The translations under genes and the position numbers were made by a program. This document shows, piece by piece, positions 1,519 to 23,200 of a stretch of DNA of 64,000 nucleotides. Source of the stretch: Lingula anatina (taxonomy: Eukaryota > Animalia > Brachiopoda); assembly GCA_051362555.1 (NCBI GenBank), contig CM120640.1, positions 3,782,001-3,846,000 of the forward strand. Direction: 5' to 3'. The stretch's first letter is position 1. Each line of letters opens with the position of its first letter. Below the pieces are notes generated by a model. That model did not search any database. It saw nothing but the letters and a program-made list of their open reading frames with translations, and was not told the origin of the DNA.

Positions 1519-4407
1519 GTAAGTGCTCTTTATTCACAGTTTAATATGTCTCACAAAATTCTGTCATGAAACCCAGGATGCTAAAATAACACCATTAATT
1601 GGAACAGGGAACCATCCCTTATTATACGTCACAGATTAAAATTCCTGGCAAATCAATTTGGTCATCTTTTAACTAGTTTTGAACCTGCAGTGTCTAATAC
1701 GTACTGCATCCTTAGCAAGGAATGAAACAACTGAATGAATCTTTTTTCAATTTGATTAATCTACATAATTTTTTTTTCAGGGGCAAGGTTGGCTTTGAAA
1801 GCGGACTGCAATCCAGGCGTCGACAGATGCGCTGACTACTTCGCTCTCTGTGATGCGCAAACACGATCATGCCAATGTGAGGAGGCATACTATGATAAAG
1901 GTGGCGCTTGTGGTAGGTTGACTGATAGTAAGGCGTGAAAGATGGAATGTTAAAATTGATCTAAACTTCATAATTATAAGTAAATATATTTATAGATGTT
2001 TAATGAGTTGGATCAGGTGAAATTTTATATTCCCATAATTTCTTAAGATTTATGCAAACTTTTGTTGATAAAATGAATGCTAATACATTTCAAGTTAGGT
2101 TGCTAATATAAACAAAATGCTTTTTCTAAAAACTAATTCATTTAGTTTGAATAATTCAGTGAATAACTGCAGTATTTTTAGTGCACTGCCTAATTATCTG
2201 AAGTTCTTTTGTGTCAGTTCCTAAAATCCTGTTAAACAAACCTTGTCAACCAGAGGAGGCATGTCTGGATCCCAATGCTTCTTGTCTCAGTGGCTTGTGC
2301 GTCTGCAATGAAGACAACTTTTATGACAAAAATGAGACCTGTGGTATGTTGGTTTGATTTGAGGAACTGTGATGAAATTTCTCAAGTGAATTTGAATTAA
2401 TAGTTATTCTGGGAAAGAAAAATTTCAAGTTATTTTAATGTTAAATATAAAAATATGGATAAATTAACCTACTAGTATACTACTTTCATACCTGGAATTG
2501 AACCTGAAGCTTATTTCTAAGAGGTGCAATCTTAAAATAGCAGTTTAGGAATTTTACATTTTTATCTTGGTAGAATAAATTTTTACAGAACAGATTTATA
2601 TTTTCATGGCAGTGCCAAAGCTGCCAGTAGGTGGAGCCTGTGTGGCTGGCACAGATATCTGCTTGGATTCTAATGCAGCATGTGGTCTCTCAAACATGTG
2701 TGAGTGCAAGAAGGAGTTCTATGTGAAAAATGGAGAATGTGGTGAGTACACCAACCGTAAATCACTTGTTATTTGCACAGTTATTATTTGATTTGCATTA
2801 GTCAACATGAATAATGATAACTACTGATTCATCTTTACAATGTGAACACCCAATGTAAGTATTTTCTAGTATTGCTAACTATAGTTCATGAACATGCACA
2901 CTTACAGTTCTGCTTGAAATTGGTCATACTGTTAGTCATACCAAGACTAATTTTGGTACTCCATGAATTTTGCTTGGTTTCTGCTCAGATGTTTTACTTT
3001 TATATTCATCAAGGCATGTGATAGATTCATATGTTACTATGTTTATGCGGAGGCAGCAGTATATCAATACATATTAATGCATCAAACTCTACATGCAGTA
3101 TTCCGTGTTGTATTTCAGTACCCTTGCTCGGTTTGGGCAGTTCTTGTGTCCAGGGAGCTGACCAGTGTGAAGATCATAATGCCAAGTGTGTGTCAGGCAC
3201 ATGTCAGTGTGTGGGGGCATACTATAATAAAGACAGTGCATGTGGTAAGTGGTTGAGGGGCACATGTCAGTGTGTGGGGGCATACTATAATAAGGACAGC
3301 TCATGTGGTAAGTGGTTGAGGGGCACATGTCAGTGTGTGGGGGCATACTATAATAAGGACAGCTCATGTGGTAAGTGGTTGAGGGGCACATGTCAGTGTG
3401 GGGGAGCATACTATAATAAAGACAGCTCATGTGGTAAGTGGTTGAGGGGCACATGTCAGTGTGTGGGGGCATACTGTAATAAAGACAGCTCATGTGGTAA
3501 GTGGTTGAGGGGCACATGTCAGTGTGTGGGGGCATACTATAATAAAGACAGCTCATGTGGTAAGTGGTTGAGGGGCACATGTCAGTGTGTGGGGGCATAC
3601 TATAATAAAGACAGCTCATGTGGTAAGTGGTTGAGGGGCACATGTCAGTGTGTGGGGGCATACTATAATAAAGACAGTTCATGTGGTAAGCGGTTGAGGG
3701 GCATGTTTCTGTATGTGAGTCCTTTTATCAAAAGGACTGTGCTCTACTTACTTTGCTTTGATTTCAGAATGCACTTGCTCATACAGGCCATGCATGATGA
3801 TTTTTTCTATATCTGCAGAATTCCTAAAGACATGTTTTCATGCCCCTTTCTTAAAATATACAGAAAGTAAACAACAGTTATTTGATAATATGATATTATT
3901 TTTATGATTTCTTTATATTTCTTGCCAGTCCTCAAGCTTGAGCTGAAGTCTAAGTGTGACCTGAGGGTTGATGAGTGCAGTGATGAAAACTCAGCATGTG
4001 TTCAGGGCACCTGCTCCTGTAACCCAGACTATTTTGAGAAGGAGAATAAATGTGGTAAATTGGGCACACCGTCTTTACTCTTTCTCTTTAGATTGTTTAA
4101 ATAAGCACATGAAAGGGATTTTATGATTCCACATATTTCAGGATATACTGTTTCTGCATTTATCTTAAAACTGAAAAATCACTTATGATATTTATTAATT
4201 GAGAATTTATGGATTATTTATTTCATATTCAATCAGAGTCTAAAGTACTGATAGATGAAAGCTGTACAAGAAGAGAAGAGTGCCTTGACCCAGTAGCACT
4301 GTGTGAGAATGGGAAGTGTAGCTGTAGAGCCACACATTACAAAAACAGGGACAGTACTTGTGGTAAGGCAATATGAAGATTTTTACCATATAATATATTT
4401 ATATTAA

Positions 4408-4460
<53 letters not shown>

Positions 4461-7400
4461 CTTGTGCACGCATTCTAACCGAGGACACACACCCGCCCGA
4501 AACCCACTAACCGAGGACACACCTCCAACCGAGGACGTCCTCGGTTGACATAAGCAGTGGAATGCATAAAGGGGCCCATTTCAAGTTAGGTGGTGAAATT
4601 TGACGCTATTCTGAGCCAGTCCTCGGTTATGCTGTATAGCGCGGGCCAAATTCCCGCCATGAGTGTATCAGAAATACTGTCCAACTTTTTGTCTGAAATC
4701 GGGCTATACACACGCGTCCTCGGTTGTGCTGTAAAGGGCGGACCAAATTCCGCGTCCTCGGTTGTGCTGTAAAGGGCAGACTAAACTGAAACTAATGTTA
4801 TATCTCAGATGTCTATATATTCAGTAAGTTCATATTTTTAAACTAAAGGTCTTTTTTATCAAATTAAGCTCTCCTAGGCCGTTACGTAACTACATAACTA
4901 TCATCGCACTGTACATATTACGGCACGCTTCTTTATTAGTACAACTGACTTGGAGTGGTTTAAATAAAGAAGAACTGTCTGAATTTGTGGCTCACTCGGT
5001 AGATCTTAGGACCGACAATCTTTTGAGGGTGCAAGAATTAAATGAAAAGGGTAAATGGATCGTCCGTAAACCCCCTTTACACTGGGGCGGCGTCCTTTGT
5101 GCGACCAAGAAACTGGCATCACTGTGGTCGTAGAAAGGAGGTACAAGCATTGCTTTGGTTGAAAAAAATGAATATTTGGTGATTGGCCAGTTGTCAGAAA
5201 GTTAAGTATTATAATTTTGTACTCTCAAATGGATCCGTACTACAGGACGCAGAAAGGCCTCACAGCAAATTAAGTATAGGCCTAACGACAGTGTTATACA
5301 AACGCAAAAAAGGTGATAGCAGAGTTGCATTTCAGTTCTTGCCCGTTCTCAAATTTACGTTTTGAATATTTTTCATGTAGATTGTTCAAGTAAAACATCG
5401 ACTTTTGTTTTTTAAATATAGAAAAGGTAATCAGTAGTCTATAGCACACAAGCAAAATTTATTTTTGAGCAAAATTGTTTCAATAACAGATCTTCGTGTA
5501 GCCCCTCCTGCCGAGCTGTGGTTTCAGATTTTTCTCAATTTTACTTGGTCGATCTTATAGATTTTTCTAAATATTCTTGGGGGAGCCCCCCCCCCCCCAA
5601 TCCCCCACCACTGTGCCACCCCTCCTCCCATAAAGAATGCATACAAATCATTTTACCATAGCCACGCCCTTCAGGGTCACCTCTTTTTATAGCGCCGGCT
5701 TGTGAGGCGATCGGCGATCATCGGCGATTATCGACTGACTTCGCTACGCTCCCTAGTGCACGAGACATCGACATACATGTAGTTCCCGAGTGGATTGTGA
5801 TGTCCTTTAAAAAAAGAAAACTAAAGGCCATTTAATAAAGGAAAACCACCACCGATATAAAGGCTTTATAGAGTATAGTTTTCATTTTTAACCAGGAAGC
5901 GAATGACGAAATATTAGTCTCGTTTTCGGTCTCATACCCTTATGGAATGAAGCCACGCGCGGCGGAAATTAACGGGGCCGTAGCGATAGTCCGAAGGTTC
6001 AATGGTCCGAATGTTCACTATAGAACCTTCGGACCAATGAACCCTTGATTAAAAAATCGATAAAAATGTTACCACTTTTCGGACCATTGAACCTTCGGAC
6101 CAATGAACCTTCGGACTATCGAGACGCCCCCAAATTAACGAAGTGAAACAACGAAAAAAAAAACGACTGTACGTTTCTCCTACGACGGCATGGTTCCATG
6201 TGGTTGCACAGTGTTTGCTCTGATTTTCTTTTATTAAGAACAGGAATGGCACTTTCAAGAGGGAAACAGTTGGTGAGTTTATTATTAAGTTTTTAAAGAA
6301 TCTTTTAATTATAAAATCGAGTGTGTAAGTTGGTTTTTCTGTTACTTTAGCTCTTATGTTATCATGAACCGATCTGGATAGATATGAAACATGACTCATG
6401 GTTGCCCCGCTCTGGGACAAGTCTTCAAAAAACTTATTTTTGTTCAGTGAAATTTTCTGCTATATCAGAATAAATTTGTTACTTGATTAATTATATTTGA
6501 TTAATTACCAGTAAGGTTTAATGAAAGCAATTATGCTGATTAGTTGACTTTTTAAAAAGCAACCCATTTATATTCCATTCTAGCTGAGACTATCCATGAA
6601 GAGGAAAAGGGTAAGCAATTACTCTGTTCAATACTTTCAATAAATAAGATGTGTTACTTATTGATCGAACTTACCTCACACAAGCATGTTATTAATCAAA
6701 CCTACTTAAGAGTAGAATGTGTGGCAATAGTACAATTCACAGATTTTATTTTTTGTCAAATTTCTTTGAGACTTTTGTAATTGTATTTGGAGAGCAATTA
6801 CCCTTTGGAATATACTGCTAAAACAGAAAATACCTAGCTATACTTTGCGTAGCCAGCTTGCTGAGCAAAACTTTGCACCTCCATAACCTGGCATTGTACT
6901 GCAACACAGCAGATAATGTGGTATACAATGAGATTAACTACTTCTAACCCCACGCCCCCCCCCCTTTTTTCATTTCAAAACAATTTGCTTGCTTAATTCC
7001 ATATTTCACTAGAATATATGATGTATATATAGCTTTGTAAATTAAGTCCCTACTATTGTCACACATCATAAATATTAAGTTTTGTCTTGAATGAAAAAGA
7101 ATACCTTCAATATTATTGTCTTGTCCTTCAAACCTTTCATAACCTGAACCAAGATTTTAAGTACATTGTACTGTGGTTACTATGACATTCTTCACGTTTG
7201 GTCTGCTGGGAGAGAGAGTACATTTAGGGATTTAAATAACAACTGGGGAAATCTATCTGCAAAAGCAGCAGCAGAAACTTAAATGATCGCTTTATATCTC
7301 AGTTCCTTCCTCATTGACAGCAACATATAGTTTTTAGGGAGAATGTGACACAAAGACCCAATGTTGTTTTTTCTTCGGCATTTCCTCCTCATTGTTTACT

Positions 7401-10400
7401 GCAATTATTATCATCAGTTAATGAAACTGAGAAAGTAATTAAGTGACAGCACATTGTTTATAATGAATGAAGTCATCAGGTGCATGTTACTGAGCGTTTA
7501 AAAGGTCTAGCGACACATTTTATCGCCAAGTGTTCTAGCAAAAAGAGAGAGAATAAGTCTGATAAATCAGGGGATTTTTAGTCTGAATTGGGGGGGGGGG
7601 GGGGGGGGATTGGGAGATATGTCCCCAAATGGGGAGATTCTCAAGGGCACCAGCAGTGTTGACAGATCTGAAATTTTTTTTCGTGAAATGAGTCTGCTAT
7701 GTAAAATTATCATACAATAGATGGTATCATACGTGCCTTAGATCTTCAGTGTGTGCAACAACAGGTGATGCTAAAAAATGTAACAAAAATGTGTGTGTTT
7801 ATGAGGGGACAGTTAGTGGTAGGCCTATTTCTATCGGTAGTTGAATAAAAATAGTCTAGTCTAGAATAATGTATGTGTGCATCTGAGATGTTGAACATGC
7901 AAAAAGTTTTTAAATTATAATAAATAAACACCAGAAATAGGAACATTTTTTAACCCTATAGAGACCGTTACCGCACCGGTGCGGTAAATTCTCCATATAC
8001 CCCAAAGGCCCAATACCGCACCGGTGCATATCTTGGAAAGATCGTCTTGTATACTCTTTTGTATCAGGAGTCACGAAATAACATACAGTTTAACATCCAG
8101 GTATGTTCCTTGTCTCTCATCCTAGCCATTTTTAAAGAACGTGAGAAATAAATTTGAGGTAGAAAACGGCAATTTTCTAGACTTAGTTGCAGTAAGTGAG
8201 ATCAAGATGGCGGCGTCTCGCCACAGTAAGGCTCATGTATACCTGATAGCAAAACGAGCATAACTTGGAAACTAATGAGAGTAACTCTCTCAAATTTTCT
8301 GTATTGAAAGCGAAGATAGTTGGTATCATCCCTGTGAATTTTCAGGCAAATGTGTGGAGAAATGAAAAAAAAAATATGCATAAGATAAATAAACTTTGTT
8401 TATTATCGCCGATTACCAAATAAGAAAGTTGTTTTTAACCGTTTTTAACTGTTGATGCTGCTTGTTAATTTCAAATGTAATTCAATTTTCATTTAGCTTA
8501 AAGTCTTGGCTTTTTATAAATGTATACTTTGTATGGGTAATAATGGCACACAAATAAATAATGGCCAATTTACTGCAGTGACCCCGCTTTTCAAGATTAG
8601 CCCACAGAATTAATTGGGCCCAGCAGAGGTTTATGGGTCAGCATTAACAGGTCTCTTAGGAGTTAAATGGCTTTGCGCCATGGCCGTGAACAGCACACAT
8701 AATGTAATATAATCTATGTTCATCAGAAAAAAAAATATTCGAAAAAAGGTTATCCTTGTCCAAGCACTTGTTGCAATATGTAGTTTTTTTTCTGCAGTTT
8801 GTTGGCTGAAACGGGTAGTGTTTTCATGTGCACGTAGATATTTCTGACATAATCTTTGCACCACAAATGGTCCTAGAATCCCCACCAGAGTTTTTCGTAC
8901 TCAGTAGTATGCCTAACTTTGTTATTTGAAAGGAGCCTAGGGGTCTGTTACTCCCCTATCAAGCATGATTATCAGTGTTAAATTTGTAAATTTGTACATA
9001 ATAGCACAATCTTTTCTTGATGTACTTGGGGTTGGCAAAGTTTTATATTTCTTAGATCATTTAACAATTACCAATCATTCTATTATAATCATTCCAGGAT
9101 GACACCACCCTAACTCCAATTCATGATGCAGAAAGGTGGATAAAAGCATGTCAAGACAAAGATGGATTTGAAGTTCGTTTTGTAAATAAAGAAAAAGGTA
9201 TTTACTTTTAGGCTATTTTCTCTCTTTTATTTTGTTAATTTTTTTGACCATTTATTTCTAGAAAGATGTAGTGATAAGTGATCAATTAAGTAAATTTGGA
9301 ACAGAAATTCTTATTTTAAAAAAATCTCTTCATGATTCACTGTGTGATAATACTTTTGTAAGGAGGAAATGCCAATTTCAGGTTCTGGAGTGTTTTCTAC
9401 AAAGACTTTTTCAAAAGGAGAGTTTATTGCGGATTATCCAGGGGAACTCATTTCGCAGAAGGATGCGAAAAAAAGGGAGAAATTAAAAGGATATACAAGG
9501 AGTCGGCATTGCTACATGTATTTTTTCAAACATGATGGAAAATTGCTGTGGTAAGACAAAACCAACATGATTTATATTGTAAGGGATATAGTTTACGCCT
9601 ATCGCATGGCACTGAGGGAAATAGCACTATTCTATTTCCCAGAGACCAGATTTCACGAGGCTTCAATAGGTCTGTTCAAGGGGAAATAGAATCGTGCTAT
9701 ATCCAAAAAAGCCATACAATAGGCCTTTTATCACACCAAAACAAACGCTAAGTTGACTTTTTAGCAATCTCCATAAATCAACATTGTTATTTCCTTCAAT
9801 CAGATATAGGCCACCCCCACTGAACATGGTAACATCACAATGCAAACCACTCATGTAGGCGTAAATTACCCCATTAGCCTTAAAAAAAAACCTGTGATTT
9901 TTATTGTCACTGCTCACAAATTTGTGCAAATTACATAGGTTGCATAACGCCTCATTGTCTTTCTGATGCTCAACCACGTTTGATTGTTTGCATGCCATGG
10001 AAGGGAAAAAAGTATTTTTTCGGAATCTGATTGGTTGTTCAGAGGGACAATAGTACTGCATCCAGTTAAATAGTACTACTTCACTCCAGCCGGGGACAAA
10101 CAAATTTTATACCAACAACAATGAAGATGTAGCCTTAAGGTGTGATAATGAAAGCTATATGTTTTAACAGAGATTGGGACACATTTGAAATATTAGGGAT
10201 AAATTTTGTAGGATTAATTGTCTGTTCTTGGGCAAAGAATATTGATATTTATGTCTTAAGTATTCCATTTCATATTTTAGAGTAAGCAACTTAGTATATA
10301 AGGTTAATATATTGTAAGGAGTTTTAAAAATATCGACTTAACAATTGGTTATAGTAAGCCCAAGGTAGTGTTTTGTGGTTACTATATTTACAGCAATAAA

Positions 10401-10675
10401 ATTTGAGGAAATGCTTTTTTTCAGTCTGGATGCAACTAAAAGCTACGAAAGGATTGGCAGGATGATAAATGACAGTCCAGAGCCAAATGCTGTAACAAAA
10501 AAGATGGTGATATCATCCACACCACACTTGGTACTGTTTGCTGCAAGAGATCTGGCTGTAGGTGAAGAAATCACATTTGATTATGGTGATGAACAAAACT
10601 TATACTGGAGAAGAAAAAAGGTATTTTTTTCTCAAAAGGACATGTTATTTAAATGCTGCAATTTCATTTTGCATG

Positions 10676-10726
<51 letters not shown>

Positions 10727-11175
10727 GGTTAGAAAATTAAAATTATTTCAAATAAGTTATCATTTATTATGCATTTTCACATGCAAAATATTTCATCAAA
10801 GTTTTAGTCAAATACATATATTAGGTAACTGTTTGTCAAAGATAAATACATAGCATGAACAACAATTTCAGGTTGCAGAAGATGCAAGTATGGAATTTGA
10901 GGCTGGTAAGTTGATTTTTTGTATTTTGTCATACAGCAGTTTTTTTATATTTGGTTATAGATATTTATGAACCTTTCTGTTTAAGTAATAAGATATCATT
11001 TGATCTTGAAGAGACCATACTTAATAATTATATCACTTTCTCATGTTAGATTCAGATTATGACCCGTTCCTGTTTGATTCAGACAATGAACTCAACATGA
11101 AAAAATATAAGGTAACTTTTTAAATTAATGTAGGATAAACATATTAAATGACAAATAGCAATTTAAAGTAAATGA

Positions 11176-11225
<50 letters not shown>

Positions 11226-14200
11226 CATATGTTACCATACTTTACCATAACATACCAATTACTAATAAGTTGTGTTGCAAAACATTCAAACAATGCTATT
11301 CATATCCTGCAGTTCTGTTTTCACCCTAACATTTACATTTACAGGTTCCTCTGTAAAGAAATAAAAGCTGACAAACGGCAAAAATAGCACAAATATACAG
11401 TCCATGTTTTTCTATTATAAAATTCATTATTCTCTGCATGATGTATTTACCACAGATACTTGTATCCGTAATTTTCATATTTCAGAAAACTGAAGAACAC
11501 TTCGAGCCCGAGATTGTTGAAAACAGTTACAGTGAGTATTAATTAATTAAGTTGTTTGTTGAAAAGTACACATTTGCATTTTTTAATAAGACATTTTACA
11601 TTTATTTATGTGATTTTGATAACTATAGGCCACCAGTGGGATATTGGGGCATAGAGTGCATTTGGCAATTGCACCCAAATTCGTGATCAGACTTAAAGAG
11701 TCTAGCAAAAGTTAAGTTTGTATTTCCGAAGCAGAGACTCTGGTACAAGATGCTTTTAGTTAGACAAAATTCAGAAGCTAGTAATTATCTCAATGAGGGT
11801 ATAAAGGTTGATTGCAATCAATGACAAATATTTAAGCTAAATTTAGGTAATTAAGACATACTCGACTATTTTTATATACAGTTTTATTGAATTTTTTTTT
11901 CACACAGGATTTTCAGTAGCTTATATATCCCATGGAACTAAATCACTTGTTAGTTTTTCAATGTCCATGTAATTTGTGGTACATAATGTAACAGTACATG
12001 AAAATTGGCCAAAGCACTCTTTGGTGCACTTTTTTCTGCCATGTTTGAATATTTGTCAGCTTTGCAGGTTTGTTTCCTGTATGGTGTCTGTCTATTTGTC
12101 AGCTGTCTAGTTTCATTACTGGTTGCTCAGTAGGCTGTTTATTGCAGGGTGTCATTTTTCCCTTTTCTCTTTTTTAAGTTTATATACCTTTGTGATTTCT
12201 CCATTTTAGGTGATGAGAGTAGCTTAATTACTCTACAAAATCCATCCTTTGAAAGGTTTATCACGTATGTATTTATGACTTCTAAAATGGCAGAGATACA
12301 TACATCCATGTATAACATTGAAACAGTTTGTTGCTAAGTCTGTTGTTAAATAATGATAAAATATTTCTTATTTTTCTTTGTATTATAGCATAGTCGTCAT
12401 GATTGGAATAATATTTCTTATTTTTATTTTTATTATTGAATAGTCATGATTAAAATTTGTTCATCTTGTTTTGAATACTTCTGAATTTATGACTTATCTG
12501 TTACTATTTGATATTCCAGAGACTCTAAGAATAACGTTGAATCCACAGAAAAGAACAGCAAAATTATTGCTAGTGAATTTGAATGTGAAACAGACGGTAA
12601 GTAAAATGGTCAGTGATGATAGTTTATGTATCCAAACCTACCAAAGTCTGATTTTGTTTGCATGCAAAACTTCCAAACTGCCAAATCCAGTTTACCCTGA
12701 TCCTAATAAATTGCTCACTAAAGAAGACTCATAAAATTATTTTAGGCTTTTAATGTGAAATATGGAATTGATACAGTAGCTTTCTTTTTACGTACAGACA
12801 CAAATGAGTCTGTACATATAGCTGTCACCTGCGTCTGTCGTGGCCGCCGCAGCCGTGCGCTCTCAGCGTAAACACGATAAGTTGAAAACCATTTAACATT
12901 TTGGCTTTATATTTACAGAGTTGATGAATATTAATATTACGCAGGTAAAAAAAATCAGCATGATTGGACTATTTTTTAAAAGTAAGACTTTTTTTTGCAT
13001 TTTCCGCACATATGCCACACCTTAAACACATTTCAAGAAGAACTGATAAGCCTATTGTCTTGAAACTCACAGGAGTGATCAGTCTTACTGAAATACAGAT
13101 CAAGTTTGAAAATAAGCTTGATTGGCTCCGTTTTGAGGGCCTTTATTTGTATATATGTGCTTTTTCCTCAAATTCAATTCTTAGGCATGTTAACAGTCGT
13201 TATTGAACTAATGAGATACATGAAAGTGTTTGACTGATATATTCTGCATCTTTACAATATTGTTAGTTGAGTATATAGAATTGATGGTAAACCTGTTATC
13301 ATGCATTGTGTAATATAAAGGGTAAAAAATAAAAATTAACTCATATTATTGCAGTCTGTCAGATTCAATCATTCACTATGTTCAGAATGGAGGAAATTGG
13401 ACATTTATAACTGTTCGTTTGACATTTTTCCCATCTCAACAATTTTCTCAGTGGATCACATAAAAATGGCAGTAAACTGTTTATTTAGTTTTATGTCTAA
13501 AAAGTGTCAAAATAGCAATAAACCCATTTCAGTACAGTGATCTCTTGTTTACATTTTGGCATTTTCAAGGTGTGAGTTTGAAGTTCCATTGGCCTGAAGA
13601 CCTATGATAGTCACATTTTCTCAATATCCATGATACTAATATTTTATTATCAAAAATTGATGGTGTTTATGCTGTTAAGCATTATGTAATATTGCATCAA
13701 AATTTGAAGAAGACCCTATTTTTTGCACTGTTTCATGATGACCATTTAGGGAAAACCATGACCATGTCACTTACTGTTAACAAAATTACAGGAAAGAAAC
13801 ATGGGACTGAAATACAGCTTCAGTTGCCAATGCAATCTGTTTGTTTTTCAGGCAGTTATACAGTTTTTTGTAAAAATTAAATTTTTCAAATATTGGCACT
13901 ATCAAGGTGTGACTTTGAAGTTCCATGGGCTTGAGGGTCTATGCTAGTCACATTTTCTGACTATCAATGATACATATATTGTATTATTAAAAATTGATGG
14001 TTATGATGCTGTTAAGCATTATGAAATATTGCATCAAAATTGAAGAAAATCCTATTTTGGTGCACTGCGGCCATGATGCCCATTTAAGTAAAACCATGTC
14101 ACTTACTGTTATCAAACTTAAAAAAAGAAACACAGGACTAAAATGTTACTTATTATTATTTTTAACTTACAAGAAAGATTTTTAGGATTGGCATGCAGCT

Positions 14201-17200
14201 CAAATTAGAAAGCCAGCTCGATTGGGTTTTCATTTATTATTGAATTTATGCAATTTTGTGTGAAATTTTCATTTTTCTCATTCTGGCATTTTCAAAGTGT
14301 TAACTTGAACTCTCATGGGCCTGCAGGCTTATGCTTGTTACTCATTTTACTCACATCGGTATTACCTGTTGAGCATAATTAAAATTTGATGCTGAATTTG
14401 CAGTTAAGCATAATATACTTTTGCATCAGAATTGACAGTAGCCTATTTTGTGCATTGTTATTTTCAGATTTTTTGCAGCATTTTTGTCTGCTTGCTTCCT
14501 GTACATTTGACAGCTTTGCTGCCTTGTTTCCAGAAAAGGTCTACCGTGGAAATTTTTTTTTTATAACTTCGCAAAGTGTTTATGGTAAAAGATCAACCTT
14601 CATTGCCCTCTTTAAAATTTCTGGCTACTGACTTCTTACTGGGCCGACCGTCATCCCACAGATAGCACCATCCAGTTTATGAATATACAATTTACAAAGT
14701 GGTGTACATATAATGATTGAAAGCTGGATAAATGGTTAGAGTACGTCATCTATTTATCCAGCCTTTATATTTCAACCATGGAGAATTTAAAATTGTATAG
14801 AGGCATGCATAAAATAAAGCCACCCACTTGATGTTGATGAAGTGAAACCCTGAGGGTAACTGACGGAATCCAGTGATAGTAACTGTACTCTGATAACTTC
14901 AGTACCAGTGTGGTGCAGCTTTAAAAATGTTCAAGTTTCGAATGTTTATTTAACATTCTGTTTGCCTCATTTTATAGGAATAATAAATCCATCAAGTGAA
15001 TTGGATGCCATTGAGGATGGGGACAAAGAATACTATCCTAGTGGCAGCACAAGTGAAAGTGAAGCAGATGAAGAAATGCAATGCTCTTTGGATGTTTCCG
15101 TTGAAACCACCCCTACAACTGTATCTGCAACTCTTACTGCCATGTCAGATACATCTGACCCTGAAGAGTCAGCCTGTAAATCCAAAGTCACCATCCAATC
15201 AACCAACAACTCACAGAAACGTAACTGGGATAAGAAGTATTATTGCCTTTTTTGTGACCTGCCTCAATCCAAGCTTCCAAGACATCTTTCCACAATGCAC
15301 CAAGAGGAGCCTCAGGTAATTGACTACCTGATAGAGGAAGATACAAAATTAAAATCCTACAAACTTGCCAAATTAAGGAACCTTGGGAACCACAAACACA
15401 ACTGTGATGTGCTGAGGAATGGAGAAGGTACATTGATTGTCGGTTATAGACCAAATACGGAGGTCTCACCAGATGATTACGGACCCTGTGAGGGATGCTT
15501 TGTATACTTAGTAAGGAGAGACTTGTGGAAACACAAATGCCCTGGAAGAGATGCATCTGCCCCCAAACCAAGGCAAGGAAGACAGGCAATAACCTGCAAA
15601 TTGCTGCTGCCAGCACCCAAAGGGATGAGCTTACCGGTTAATAGATTGCTGCGAAGCATGTTGGATGATGATGTCTCTCGTGCAGTTAGGAATGACTCTC
15701 TAATTGTAGACCTAGCTAATAGAGAATTTCTTCGATTGGGGCATAATAGAGATCAGCACAACTATATTAGGGACACTCTTCGTAGAATGGGACGCCTGCT
15801 GATACAGCTCAGAAGCCAAACAAAGAATAAACATGCTGGACTAGAGAGCTTTATTGATCCCTCAAGCTACCAGGAGGTAACCCAAGCAGCAAAAATAGTC
15901 TCTGGTTTTAACGAAGAAACGCACAAGTACACAACGCCAAGTCTTGCCCTCAAGATTGGACACACAATTAAAAAATGCGCTAAAATCTTAGAAGGTAGAG
16001 CATTGGAGCAAGAAGACAAGGAGATGGAGAAGAAGTCCAAGTCATTCAGGAAGCTCTGTGAAATGAATTGGACAGATGATATTTCGACCCATGCTCTGCG
16101 AACCTTGTACAACTGCAAGAAGAATCAGATCAAAGTTCTGCCAGTGACAGAAGACATCATGCTGCTTTCAAAGTTCTTGAAAAATGAAAGTCAACGCTGC
16201 ATAGACGAAGTGGAGAAGAGCATGGATTGCAACACATGGAACAGATTGAACAAAGTAGTCCTAGCTAGAATCATTCTATTCAATCGCCGCCGGCAAGGAG
16301 AGGCCTCCAGAATAACATTAGATGATTACCAGAATAGGCCAGCACCTAATGGGGAGAAGGTAGTTTTAGATAGTCTTACTACTGTAGAGCAGGAGTTGTG
16401 TCGAACCCTACACAGAATGGAGATCACAGGGAAAAGGGGAAGAACAGTCCCTGTTCTTCTCCCATCAGATGTGCAACAGGCGATAAATTTGCTCATTGAA
16501 ACAAGATCAAAATTTGGAGTGAGCAAAGATAACAAGTATCTCTTCCCCAGGCCCAACTATGGCAGTGAGGGTCACATCCGGGGGTCGGACTGCCTTAGAG
16601 AACTAGCACAAGAGAGTGGAGCAAAGCAGCCAGAGCTGATCAATTCCACCACCCTGAGAAAGCAGATTGCCACCATATCCCAGGTGGTAGATCTGAGAGA
16701 GAATGAGCTGGATATCTTGGCTAAGTTTTTAGGCCATGATATTCGTATACATCGGGAATATTATAGACTGCCAGAAGCAACAGTTCAGGTGGCCAAAGTG
16801 TCCAAGCTTTTGCTTGCCTCAGAGCAAGGACTGCAAATTGGAGGCAAGACTCTCGATGACATAAATGTCACCACTGAAGATGGTATGTAATAGATCCTTC
16901 TCTAGAAATCATTGTGAAACACTTCCATCCATCTCCCTGAAAACATTTCTAAATGTTAAGATGTTGTGTACCTGAGAGATATTACCAAAAATCTGTTATC
17001 ATTAAAATTTATTCAAAGTATGTAAGAGAATACACACTGAATTCTCATTTCACTAGTTGTTTTATCAATCAAACATTATACGATTTCAAATTTTAGTATT
17101 TGAAGAGGAATTGTTGGAGGACGCAGCAAATGAAGACTCTGCTCAAGGTATAGTAAAATTTGATCAAATGCTGAGTTGCACAAGTGATGTTTTTCGTAGT

Positions 17201-20200
17201 ATAGGAACATGCAGTGAGTGCACTTCTATGTGTAAACGTACAATAAAAACTGTCAGAATTATCTAGATTTACATGCTACATTTAAAGTGATAACTGTTAG
17301 TATGAAATCCTTATTTGACAATGAATACAAATGCTATTTTACCACCAAAGTGGCATTTTTTTTTTTTTTTTTTTTTTTTTTGCTAAAATGGTCATTTATT
17401 ATCCCTTTAGTATATTTACCTTTAATTTTGCTTTTTCAGATATTGTTGGTCAATTGATTCCAAGGGTCCCTTTAGATAATGGTGGAGAAGTTAATGCATT
17501 AGTGGAAAAACCAGGTAAAAAGAATTGCAAGAAATTACATACAGTAAATGTTTATCAAAATATTTGAATTATATAATGAACTCTCAAATTTCTATATTGG
17601 TATTCTAACATATTTTTTTATGGATATTACTTGTTACATGATCTAATAACATATCAGGTGAAAATATGCTATACACTAATTTTGCTGTCAAAATGCTTAG
17701 ATCCATATTCTATGGGGAAACTAAGAGGCCTTTCACAACAACTGGGCCAGGGTTTGACTCATCATGTGACATTTTGAAAGAATAACACCTAATTCTTTAA
17801 TGGAATGTCTTCAGGCAACTTTGCTGTTTTAATAGCTCTCCCCCCCCTGCAGGGAAGGCGGGTCGATTGTTAAAGGATAAAATTTTACTTTTTTAACATG
17901 TGTGATGATTTAGGCTTCAGCTCAGTTAAGCTGCAGCTCATTTGTTATGATTAGTCTCTACAGCATTAAGTCTGAATAGTTCCATACTTTTTTTATTTGT
18001 AGTCCCAAAAAAGAAGGCAAAAGGCAAAAGGCCTTGGACAAAAGAAGAAGTGTCAGCTGTATTGAAGCATTTAGGAAGTTTCCTGGTTCAAGGAAAACTG
18101 CCTGGAAAAGAAGCAATCATGGAATGTGTGGAACAAGAATCTGCTTTGGATAGCAGGAGCTGGAAAAACATTAAAGACTTTTGTAGAAACAGAATGCAAA
18201 CAAAGGATCCACTAAAACTAACTTATGCAAATTAAGCAAGTTAATTTCGAAAATCAGCATGGGGGGGGGGGGGGGTTCAAGCTGTGCTTTTTTCACCTTT
18301 TCCAGCATATTTCCAACACTGTTAACATATTTCCGATAGGCGTATTGTCATGAAACTCACAGAACTGTTGAATATTTATAAAACGCAGTTCGAAAATCAG
18401 TGTGATCTGGCCATTTTTACAAAGTTGCTGTTTTTCCTTTTTCTCAGCATAATATTATATGCGATGCAACATTTTAAAGAGAACCGATAGGTCTATTTTC
18501 ATGAAACTCACAGAACTGATGAATATTAGTTAAACGCAGGTCAAGTTTGAAAATCTTCATAATGGGCTGCTTTTTTTTTTTTCAGAAAATTTGCTGTTGT
18601 TTTTGCTTTTTTCAGCATACATGCAACACTGTAAACACAGTTCAAGGAGAAGCAATAGGTCTATTGTCATGAAACTCACAGAACTGATGATTATTAGTAA
18701 AAGGGTTGTCAAGATCAAAAATCGGCATATCCGGGCCATTTTTTGTCAAAAGTTATGCTGTTTTTTTTTCTGCCATTTTCAGCATATAAGTAACACTGTA
18801 AGCACATTTCAGGGAGAACCGATAGGCCTGTTGTCATTAAACTCACAGGAGTGATCAATGTTACCAATATACAAATCAAGTTTGAAAATAGGATTGATTG
18901 GTTGAGTTTTGTGGAAGTTGTGCCTTGTTTTGATATATATATATATATAAGTGGTTTTCCTCAGATTTGATTGTCAGGCATGTTGACAGTTTCGTTATTG
19001 AACTAACTAGATATGTAAATATGTTAGTGTTTGTCTGAAATTTTCTGCATCTTTACAACATTGCTAGTTGATTATATAAATATGACGGTAAACATGTTAT
19101 CATGTACTGTGTAATACAGTGTCTCAAAATGGAGGAAATGGGGTGATTATTTTCAAAAGTTTTGCATTTTTTTTCTCCTTTTTTCAGTGTACATGCAACA
19201 CTGTAAACACACTTCAAGGAGAACCAATAGGCCTGTTTTCATGAAACTCGGAGAACTGATGATTATTAGTAAATTAAAAAGAATGATCAAGATTGAAAAT
19301 CAGCATGACCAGGCCCTTTTCTTTCAAATGTTATGCTGGGTTTTTTTCAGCATATATGTAACACTTTAAGCATATTTCAAGGAGAACCAATAAGCCTGTT
19401 TTCATGAAACTCACAGAACTGATGATTATTAGTAAAAGAATGGTCAAGATTGAAAATCAGCATGACCAGGCCCTTTTCTTTCAAATGTTATGCTGTTTTT
19501 TTTAAGCATATAAATAACACTGTAAGCACATTTCAGGAAGAAGCAATAAATTAAAGCCTGTTTTCATGAAACTCACAGAACTGATTATTATGAGTAAAAG
19601 AATGGTCAAGATTGAAAATCAGCATGACCAGGCCCTTTTCTTTCAAATTTTATGCTGTTTTCTTTTTTTTTCAGCATATAAGTAACACTGTAAGCACATT
19701 TCAGGGAGAACCGATAGGCCTGTTGTCATTAAACTCACAAGAGTGATCAATGTTATCTATATACAAATCAAATTTAAAAATAAGATAGATTGGTTGAGTT
19801 CTGAGGGACTTCAGCTTTTATTTGTATATAAGTGGTTTTCCTCAGATTTGATTGTCAGGCATGTTGACAGTTTCGTTATTGAATTAACTACATATGTAAA
19901 TATGTTAGTGTTTCTCTGAAATTGTCTGCATCTTTACAACATTGCTAGTTGATTATATAAATATGACGGTAAACATGTTATCATGTACTATGTAATACAG
20001 TGTCTCAAAATGGAGGAAATGGGGTGATTATTTTCAAAAGTTTTGCATTTTTTTCTCCTTTTTTCAGTGTACATGCAACACTGTTAACATATTTCAAGGA
20101 GAACCAATAAGCCTGTTTTCATGAAACTCACAGAACTGATGATTATTAGTAAAAGAATGGTCAAGATTGAAAATCAGCAAGACCAGGCCCTTTTCTTTCA

Positions 20201-20211
20201 AATGTTATGCT

Positions 20212-20259
<48 letters not shown>

Positions 20260-23200
20260 CCAGCATATATGTAACACTGTAAGCACATTTCAGGGAGAAC
20301 CAATAACTTAAAGCCTGTTTTCATGAAACTCACAGAACTGATGATTATTAGTAAAAGCATATTAGTAACACTGTAAGCATATTTCAGGGAGAACCGATAG
20401 GCCTGTTGTCATTAAACTCACAAGAGTGATCAATGTTATCTATATACAAATCAAATTTAAAAATAAGATTGATTGGTTGAGTTTTGAGGGACTTCAGCTT
20501 TTATTTGTATATAAGTGGTTTTCCTCAGATTTGATTGTCAGGCATGTAAACAGTCTCATTATTGAATTTACTAGATATGTAAAATGGGTTGTTTGACAAT
20601 TTCTGCGTCTTGACAATATTGCTAGTTGATTATATAAAAATGGTGGTAAACCTGTTATCTTGTATTGTGTAAAAAAAAGTGCCAAAATGGAAATGAACTC
20701 GTATCATTGTAGTTTGTCAGATTCAATCATTCACAATGTTCGGAATGGAGGAAATTGGACATTTAAACTTGTTATATTGATATTTTTGCCATCTCAACAA
20801 TTTTCTTAGTTGATCATGTGAAATGGCAGTAAACTGTATTATTTAATGTAAAAAAGTTAAAAATGGAAAGAAACCCATTTCAGTACAGTGCTCTCTTGTA
20901 TACATTTAGCATTTTCAAAGTATGACTTTGGAGTTCCATGAACCTGAAAACCTTTGCTAGTCACATTTTCTGAATATTCATGATACTAATATTTTATTAT
21001 AAAAAATTGATGATCATTATGCTGTTAAGCATTATATAATATTGCATCAAATTGGAAGAAAGCACAATTTTGGGTGCTGCTGGCATGATGTCCTCAATTG
21101 TAAAATTGTGTACTGTGCAAGTCTGTATCCAATGGACGACACTTTGTGTTATCAAAATATAAAATTCATGATAATAAAAGAGTGCTAAATAGAAAATAAG
21201 CATTATGAAAATAAAATGTTTGAAAACGAATTTCTTTGGTCTTTTATTTTATTTCATCAGTATCCTTTCTTTTCCTAAATTAATTGATGTTTTATCTCAT
21301 AATCTTCAATTCTAAAAAAGTGGCAAAGTCCAGCATTAAATATTGTATAACTGTTCATTTAATCATCACTTCTGGTGTTATTTTGGAATTTACCTTAAAT
21401 ATGAAAGAATTTCATAAAAATGTGAATTGCTGCAAAGTAACGCTACATAAAATTTGCTTTGCATTAAAAGTACAATCATTATTACATGTAGATGCATGCA
21501 TGTCCTCGGTTGTAATGTGTAGTGTCTGTCCGTGTGTGTGTCCGTGTGTGTCCTCGTTTAGAATGTAAAATTCTTGTCAGCAAAAAATTAGTTTTTATAA
21601 AAAATTAATTTATAACATTCATACTCGAATAGATTTTACCCTAAATTGAATGTTTTTATTTTGATTTAACCAAGGAATAAGATGTCCTCGGTTGTATGGT
21701 GTTGTGCTGATGTCCTCGGTTGGTACACATAGACAAGTATGTGTGTGTGTGTGTGTGTGTGCGCGCGCGCGCTCCATTCTCTTTGAATAATCTATTGCCT
21801 TAGTATGAAATATTTTCTTATCACAATGATTGCAGTGTAAGAAGAATTGTCAAATGACACCTGAGTTTTTTTTTTTTTTTTTTTTTTTGCTATATTACCA
21901 CATTTACGTAGTATTGCATATATATTTTTAAACTTACTGTAAAAGTAGCATGTGTTGTGCTGAAGAGATGAGTTTTAAGTAGTTATAATATCTATATAGA
22001 TATAATATCCATATAAAATCCATATTTTATAACAGTTTTAAAGAAGCTTCACGAGGAGTCCTGCAGTTCGGAAGATGAATGTGCAGATGAGAATGCTGTC
22101 TGCAATCAACAGTGTAGGTGCAAAGAAGACTTCCATTTCTTTGAAAACAAGTGTGGTGAGTTTTGAATTATGTTCTTTATATTTGGACACATTTTAAATG
22201 TAAACTTTTGAAAATTGTTATAGAGCATCACAGTAAACATATCAGAATTTTTTTTACAATATTTAGTTATTTCCACTGTAATTATGTTAATCTTTTAAGT
22301 GAAAAATTTCCAATTTATGCAAAAAAATATTTCAGTTCCCCACTTTGGCCTTGGTGCTCCCTGCGTTACCAAGGCCCAGTGTGCAGACCCCAATGCAGCG
22401 TGTGATGATATCTGCCGGTGCCAGGAGGAGTATTTTGAACTTGAGGGAGAGTGTGGTGTGCTATTTAGTTTTTATGAGTTTGTTTAGAACATATGCAAAA
22501 TATTTATAAGAATATATGTGGTACAGTCAACACGACTTTTAGTCCAAATTGATAAAGACTTCAAATTTAAGTTTTAGTTTTATTATTGTAATAGTCAAGA
22601 AGACAAAAGCATTAGATACGTATTGTATCAAAAAAAATCAATTATGAGGGAAAAAGTGCTTGATTTTGTTTCCCAAATAATTTTTCGTTTAAAACAGAAA
22701 AAAAACATACAGATCTGTTATATAATTCTTCTAGAAAAGAAAGTTCCTTTGAATGAGCCATGTCCAGGTCCAACCTACCTGTGCATGGACAGTAGTGCAA
22801 AGTGCCAAGATGGCCGCTGCCTCTGCCTGGATACACACTATGAGAAAAACTCTGCCTGTGGTAAATTTGTATTCACAAGTCATATAATTGTTTATTTGTT
22901 TGAAATGGGTATCGCGGATTACGTTAGAACAAATTGATTTTATGATGTTGATGATATTTCAACAAATTTTTACTTCAGAAGTGGTTTCATGTGTATATGT
23001 AAATATTTATGGCCATTGCTTACTGCCAACAAACTGGGCAGTACAGCAGTGTATATTCATTAAGATATTCCACTTAACAAAATGATGAAAACAAACCATT
23101 TTGACTCTTAAGAATATGCAAAATACTCCCAATTTTTTCAGAATTAAAGCGCTCCCTGGCGGCCACGTGTGACCCTGGACTGGACGTTTGTAAAGATGTT

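Follow-up and report, generated by a model that had tools for sequence, protein, structure and literature searches.

The window, the whole 64-kb stretch of Lingula anatina DNA that was analysed, carries on its + strand an animal gene in which cysteine-rich, EB-module-like exons recur regularly a few hundred bases apart. Pattern matching gave 66 matches in the window, and the gene, which spans 2244-32007 and beyond, has at least 66 such exons. At 3031-3870, part of one module has been amplified as a short tandem array, and a Pfam 'Atracotoxin' match to this host repeat (3031-3867) was taken as spurious, the sequence being a cysteine-rich tandem repeat. Two successive host exons lie at 4263-4361 and 22062-22154, and the element of ~17.3 kb found between them is therefore inside one host intron. 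The features of the element and its borders are as follows.

4263-4361, + strand: host EB-module-like exon left of the insertion (pattern match)
4409-4458, no strand: (TG)25, left half of the microsatellite inferred as target (direct sequence)
4459-21739, + strand: whole element, ~17.3 kb, counting the flanking CT and TA (boundaries inferred, within a few bases)
4461-4487, + strand: left imperfect terminal inverted repeat, CTTGT-N11-AACCGAGGACA (direct sequence)
4477-4536, + strand: three inward-reading 10-mers, at 4477, 4509 and 4527 (motif scan of the window)
4526-4547, no strand: 22-bp perfect palindrome made of two 10-mers (direct sequence)
4537-4763, - strand: four outward-reading 10-mers, at 4537, 4619, 4716 and 4754 (motif scan of the window)
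9098-10620, + strand: SET-domain exons at ~9098-9198, 9382-9551 and 10426-10620 (Pfam SET, E 1.2e-5 and 8e-10; splice sites placed by eye)
14978-16882, + strand: large uninterrupted exon with C2H2-like finger, core-binding helices and tyrosine recombinase (YR) catalytic domain (homologues and model)
18004-18236, + strand: last exon, a 76-aa three-helix helix-turn-helix (HTH) of homeodomain/Myb-type fold, candidate reader of the 10-mer (homologues and model)
21502-21721, - strand: four inward-reading right-end 10-mers, at 21502, 21550 (with one private mismatch), 21684 and 21712 (motif scan and run contigs)
21711-21737, - strand: right imperfect terminal inverted repeat (direct sequence)
21740-21761, no strand: (TG)11, right half of the microsatellite inferred as target (direct sequence)

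To the left of the element stands (TG)25-CT and to its right TA-(TG)11. There is no target-site duplication, as the left flank is TG-CT and the right flank TA-TG, and no direct repeat other than TG borders the element. Without the element, the intron would be of ordinary size and would contain one TG tract. Both the apparent targeting of TG and the exact crossover are inferred from one locus, the single insertion site seen. The end contigs assembled from X1, a public DNA run, extend 5 nt beyond the left block and 3 nt beyond the right, and those of run X3 extend 39 and 28 nt, which does not of itself fix the boundary.

Several further repeats lie within the element. Two nested high-copy repeats are found at 5087-5257 and 5974-6131. 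The second is palindromic and MITE-like; its depth in X1 sums to more than 300,000, and reads from it are numerous in both RNA runs. An imperfect tandem repeat family of ~160 bp occupies 18270-20900 and has a homologous block at 12900-14450, in the intron preceding the YR exon. A 54-bp inverted repeat (76% complementary) at 9597-9724, in a SET intron, is probably another small insertion.

Examination of the coding sequence suggested, by a tentative exon chain, a spliced product consisting of SET, zinc finger, YR and HTH domains, in which the chain of small exons linking SET to the YR exon is likewise tentative. Only SET, YR and HTH were found by scanning open reading frames of at least 100 aa and by Pfam, and the YR was accompanied by neither a reverse transcriptase nor a DDE enzyme. 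The same scans revealed no DDE gene in the element interior, nor was a second boundary pair found there, and Pfam gave no match in the element to DUF3435 or, at E<=0.1, to DUF3504. The SET exons had almost no reads in the RNA runs X10 and X16, of which ~6% and 25%, respectively, were read, and nothing firm on expression follows.

Of 7,993 candidates that were scored, 237 are relatives of the YR exon at E<=0.001. The best 120 of these include sequences from molluscs, echinoderms, a hemichordate, an annelid and fish, and the named ones among them are annotated as uncharacterised or hypothetical. Searches of the PDB by sequence gave no YR match; YRs were obtained only by the fold search. The structure model, built on 105 aligned sequences (pLDDT 92), has the core-binding and catalytic domains of the YR fold, with XerH (E 5.7e-5), IntI (8e-4) and XerA as the leading matches, then Cre, Tn1549 Int and lambda Int. 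When compared with a viral structure library, the model matched phage integrases and VLF-1. With residue numbering started at 15208, R362, K409, R484, H510 and Y519 are kept in 104, 103, 103, 104 and 103 of the 105 aligned sequences, respectively, and from the YR motif we take them to be candidate catalytic residues. The position of the canonical HxxR histidine is T481 in 98 of the 105 sequences.

The initial annotation had also pointed to Myb-like and finger domains in the protein, and candidate counterparts of both were seen. A C-C-H-H motif in the N-terminal part is similar to a C2H2 finger, with a weak match (E 0.31); of the 105 sequences, 101-102 keep its residues C13, C16, H26 and H31. 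The last exon is modelled as a C-terminal HTH of three helices, homeodomain/Myb-like, with a best Z of 7.3 and an rmsd of 2.3 over 60 residues; homeodomain and Myb rows were tied at Z 5-7, a middling range under 8. This exon had no Foldseek match at E<=0.001 and no Pfam match, and homologues of it occur in 25 of the best 120 of the 237 YR relatives. The extra domain varies among the 12 relatives scanned, with SET in three (one weak) and BRCT, OTU and HECT in one each. The relatives with SET, BRCT, OTU protease and HECT extras are P0101, P0002, P0004, P0038, P0115 and P0104, some of which may be gene-model fusions.

We then considered the two ends of the element. The proposed layout of CTTGT-N11-AACCGAGGACA was borne out at both by the letters themselves: the left end (4461-4487) reads CTTGT gcacgcattct AACCGAGGACA, and the right end, as the reverse complement of 21711-21737, reads CTTGT ctatgtgtacc AACCGAGGACA, with identity at 20 of the 27 positions. 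A scan for the 10-mer with at most one mismatch returned 11 copies in the 64-kb window against a shuffle mean of 0.86, with none of 100 shuffles reaching 11. Each copy lies within 302 bp of an element end, which confirmed the earlier impression that the motif is restricted to the ends. Seven copies, all exact, span 4477-4763 on the left, within 302 bp of that end, and four span 21502-21721 on the right, within 236 bp of theirs. The earlier count of seven and four is thus correct with one mismatch allowed, but the fourth right copy, at 21550, is inexact in the window, leaving three exact ones. A G at 21557 is present in X1, X3 and X9 contigs and in 26 of 26 X10 reads, where the window copy differs, and with this G the imperfect right 10-mer becomes exact in the family sequences. 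The 22-bp palindrome mentioned in the initial annotation was located within the left array, at 4526-4547. CTTGT precedes the 10-mer at the terminal spacing in 2 of the 11 copies, both of them terminal, and the terminal 10-mers start exactly 16 bp from the first base of CTTGT, both ends alike. These motifs are probably, in our estimation, the two ends of a 17-kb animal tyrosine-recombinase transposon lying in a TG repeat.

The 11-bp spacer had been described as differing between the ends. In its bases it does, as 4 of 11 are identical, but it is not free spacer: 9 of 11 positions are of the same purine/pyrimidine class, mostly alternating, and the 11 nt preceding all 11 copies of the 10-mer share a weak consensus, CTATACATTCC. 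Pairwise identity of these blocks is 0.39 versus 0.28 when shuffled (0 of 5,000 shuffles as high) and 0.37 when the duplicated copy at 4754 is left out. The adjacent 11-nt blocks are less conserved yet still above shuffle, 0.30 versus 0.25, and part of the spacer signal therefore reflects shared descent of the repeats. No variant of the left spacer was found among the run sequences aligned, and the right spacer was comparable only up to 21728. The spacer is not neutral: it forms the degenerate first half of a repeat of ~21 bp. In plain terms, the ends are an imperfect terminal inverted repeat of 27 bp, the inner ~21 bp of which recurs subterminally.

This ~21-bp unit is longer than the footprint of one HTH, and it bears on a reading, in our judgement unlikely, in which the whole terminal unit of 21-27 bp is contacted by the N-terminal finger together with the core-binding part, the internal copies are loading sites, and the HTH acts elsewhere, for example on the target. 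The conservation of the four finger residues agrees with such a role. The conservation of the adjacent blocks counts against it, as the spacer signal comes in part from repeat descent, and so does the typical length of YR core sites, 11-13 bp in the available text of PMC3212892, which would stop before the 10-mer.

The abundance of the ends was estimated from contig depth in three DNA runs (X1, X3 and X9), which is not equivalent to copy number. In X1, 4461-4739 lies on one contig at a depth of 5,269.7 and 21483-21728 on another at 5,263.2, each with one difference from the window. The unique interior is at 37.3 and the right host flank at 97.9, giving end ratios of 141 and 54. In X3, the ends are at 117.5 and 62.3 versus 7.07, and in X9, for the right end only, contigs of 5,979-7,743 compare with flank contigs of 18-71. 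The ends are multicopy, near-identical and far more abundant in this species than the middle of the element. That the two ends share the same, very high depth suggests many near-identical copies in which the ends are kept and the middle is missing, and by the depth of ~5,265 versus 37 in X1, the element appears to be an interspersed multicopy one with non-autonomous derivatives. The flanks of other copies are not visible, as the left alignment began at the end itself and the right alignment skipped 21729-21898. No joint between the two ends, and no circle junction, appeared in these alignments, each of which covered one end. Most likely, the element was recently amplified.

The interior differs between runs. 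In X3, the interior was assembled, at a depth of 5-14, but not the right host flank, which hints at several full-length copies. The abundant left part in X3 continues past 5086 into sequence absent from the window, so the common short copies differ from the window copy from there on. X9 contains 0.10 of the words of 4461-10600, and a full-length copy could be absent from it.

The excess of ends over interior would be accounted for by internally deleted copies moved in trans. It would also be accounted for if the ends were a separate non-autonomous inverted-repeat family, served by another transposase such as a DDE enzyme, that had received or captured the SET-YR gene, which we consider quite improbable. 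The ~50-140-fold greater depth of the ends in X1, not shared by the interior, is in keeping with such a family. DDE elements typically have terminal inverted repeats and subterminal repeats, which fits the ends seen here, and CryptonA and CryptonI are without terminal repeats in the text available (PMC3212892). The ends and the YR gene are also seen travelling together at one locus only, which argues against our main reading, as do the middling HTH match, the threonine in place of the HxxR histidine, the single insertion site and the absence of such ends from the one related locus described below. Against a separate family stand the lack of a target-site duplication and of any second boundary pair or DDE gene inside the element, together with the X3 interior and a junction geometry, detailed below, that agrees with YR sites.

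Reads in X10 cover both ends (21505-21730 and 4461-4870), nearly all with the first mate on the + strand, and X16 has next to no reads at the left end. The X10 end reads are probably read-through of a copy elsewhere. Being stranded over both ends, they would also suit 10-mers that are host transcription-factor sites of an enhancer or promoter, which might for instance be put together on a circle, much as the joining of Starship ends by circularisation led to higher recombinase expression in the part of 10.64898/2026.09.21.753150 available to us. The fixed distance of 16 bp to CTTGT at both ends suits recombination geometry and not an enhancer, and we regard this explanation as very improbable.

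The reading we prefer, and hold to be moderately probable, is that the locus contains a 17.3-kb YR DNA transposon in a (TG)n tract, with the 10-mer as the likely binding site of the protein that the element encodes; this protein would bring the ends together, excise the element as a circle and reinsert it in TG. Excision would join the ends as ACAAG-TA-(TG)1or2-CT-CTTGT, and the circle junction would then be an inverted CTTGT around an overlap of 6 or 8 bp, the usual YR geometry; in the accessible passages of PMC3212892, a typical YR site consists of inverted repeats of 11-13 bp separated by 6-8 bp. The central TG of the overlap would provide microhomology with the target, and crossover of the circle with (TG)n through this TG would yield the junctions seen here. 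For IntDOT, a match of one or two bases at the cut can be enough, according to the available portion of PMC2817482. Circles are proposed as the route by which Cryptons move (PMC3212892, in the passages available) and are shown as intermediates for the YR transposons of fungi known as Starships (10.64898/2026.09.21.753150, likewise in part).

The core site of each YR protomer may comprise CTTGT and the 6-8 nt of spacer that follow it. The spacer alternates between purine and pyrimidine much as (TG)n does, such that one core-binding domain could accept both end and target. The 10-mers, seven on the left in mixed orientation and four on the right, would be asymmetric accessory sites. Their likeliest reader would be the C-terminal HTH, acting two turns from the cut and beyond the normal core footprint. 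The SET domain may be exchangeable cargo that acts on chromatin.

The initial annotation had suggested a core site plus arm sites, as for the integrases of lambda or Tn916, with the Myb-like or finger domain bound one helical turn from the cleavage site. Part of this survives, as the ends belong to a YR element, are multicopy and have a geometry that fits a core-plus-accessory layout. The free spacer does not survive, as described above, nor does the distance of one turn: with cleavage placed just outside CTTGT, the 10-mer would start 16 bp and be centred ~21 bp from the cut, or two turns away. A lambda-like two-site system, in which the body of the YR would read TG-like cores and the C-terminal HTH the asymmetric arms, with a circle, integration into (TG)n, a SET domain of its own and recent amplification, is possible, and we put it forward tentatively.

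Judged from its sequence, the element is a Crypton in the broad sense, that is, a eukaryotic DNA transposon with a YR and without reverse transcriptase. Some CryptonV families insert in microsatellites, as stated in the available text of PMC8869645, and the window copy, at its one locus, splits a (TG)n tract in this manner. It is likely a CryptonV-like, microsatellite-targeting YR transposon and a probable member of CryptonV. By description CryptonV is the nearest known group, and the element shares with it (Repbase; Kapitonov and Jurka 2012, cited in PMC8869645; PMC5753468) the features of an animal YR DNA transposon inserted in a microsatellite. The passages on CryptonV available from these two papers mention no inverted ends, 10-mer arrays or SET and HTH domains, whereas the element here has all of these.

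CryptonA, I, F and S are likewise YR-only DNA transposons with a circle model, and abundant non-autonomous derivatives of CryptonI and CryptonA keep a few hundred bases of each end, as the ends here suggest for this element (Kojima and Jurka 2011, PMC3212892, for the parts available). In the same passages of PMC3212892, these four groups are without terminal inverted repeats, in contrast to the 27-bp imperfect inverted ends found here; CryptonF and CryptonS have direct repeats of 4-6 bp instead of inverted ends with subterminal repeats; and CryptonA and CryptonI lack a C-terminal domain, unlike the present protein with its C-terminal HTH. CryptonA carries DUF3504, which had no match in the element at E<=0.1.

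The integrases of Tn916 and Tn1549, which are factor-assisted bacterial YRs, act by a core and arm mechanism. With these, lambda Int and IntDOT, the element shares the YR fold and asymmetric extra sites located further in, as far as the available text of PMC2817482 describes them. Systems of this type have imperfect inverted repeats around a short overlap and need little homology with the target (PMC2817482, in the passages available), and the junction predicted here has an overlap of 6 or 8 bp. Their arm-binding domain is N-terminal, whereas the candidate here is the C-terminal HTH or the C2H2-like finger. Sequence identity between bacterial YRs and the element protein is 11-16%, and neither an excisionase nor a bending factor was found in the element. 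The element may work like a core-plus-arm integrase.

Starships, the fungal DUF3435 elements, are also large eukaryotic YR elements with a circle intermediate (10.64898/2026.09.21.753150, available in part), and some have asymmetric terminal inverted repeats (PMC13465315, available in part). DUF3435 clusters were weak Atlas neighbours at 0.89, a lead only, and the element has no Pfam match to DUF3435. Starships are fungal and laden with cargo, whereas the present element is animal.

Related ends were sought as CTTGT-N11-AACCGAGGAC in metagenome contigs (at least 118 stretches) and viral contigs (13), and none of the at least 131 loci was element-like. Three of these, picked out because they had another motif or a TG tract, proved to be unrelated tandem repeats or chance matches. 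Related loci sought by protein numbered none in viral contigs, none in metagenome contigs and one in genome contigs, L132, with 39% identity and with no recognisable ends and no exact 10-mer. L132 holds at 2652-4316 and 8200-8821 an intron-containing relative of animal type with a duplicated HTH exon, and its contig, filed in a bacterial genome bin, is most likely host contamination.

No description of this end structure, or of a SET-YR-HTH animal transposon, was found in the openly accessible papers searched. The available portions of PMC10871703, PMC13465315, PMC5718144, PMC7599744, PMC3706591, PMC8969392, PMC13465017 and PMC3537659 contain no such ends or domain set. The element is most likely an unreported instance of a catalogued but barely described kind of transposon.

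Crypton-type elements of animals are known almost only from sequence catalogues, and for Cryptons the circle model is a proposal, according to the available passages of PMC3212892. At this locus the ends are sharp, near-identical and abundant, the catalytic exon is uninterrupted and the circle junction can be predicted exactly, so that excision, the targeting of microsatellites and the recognition of the ends are open to direct testing. A YR able to place long stretches of DNA in TG repeats could also be useful as an integration tool. Relatives of the YR are widespread, from molluscs, echinoderms, a hemichordate and an annelid to fish among the best 120 of 237. With these ends, the way in which animal YR transposons move can be tested exactly and at low cost.
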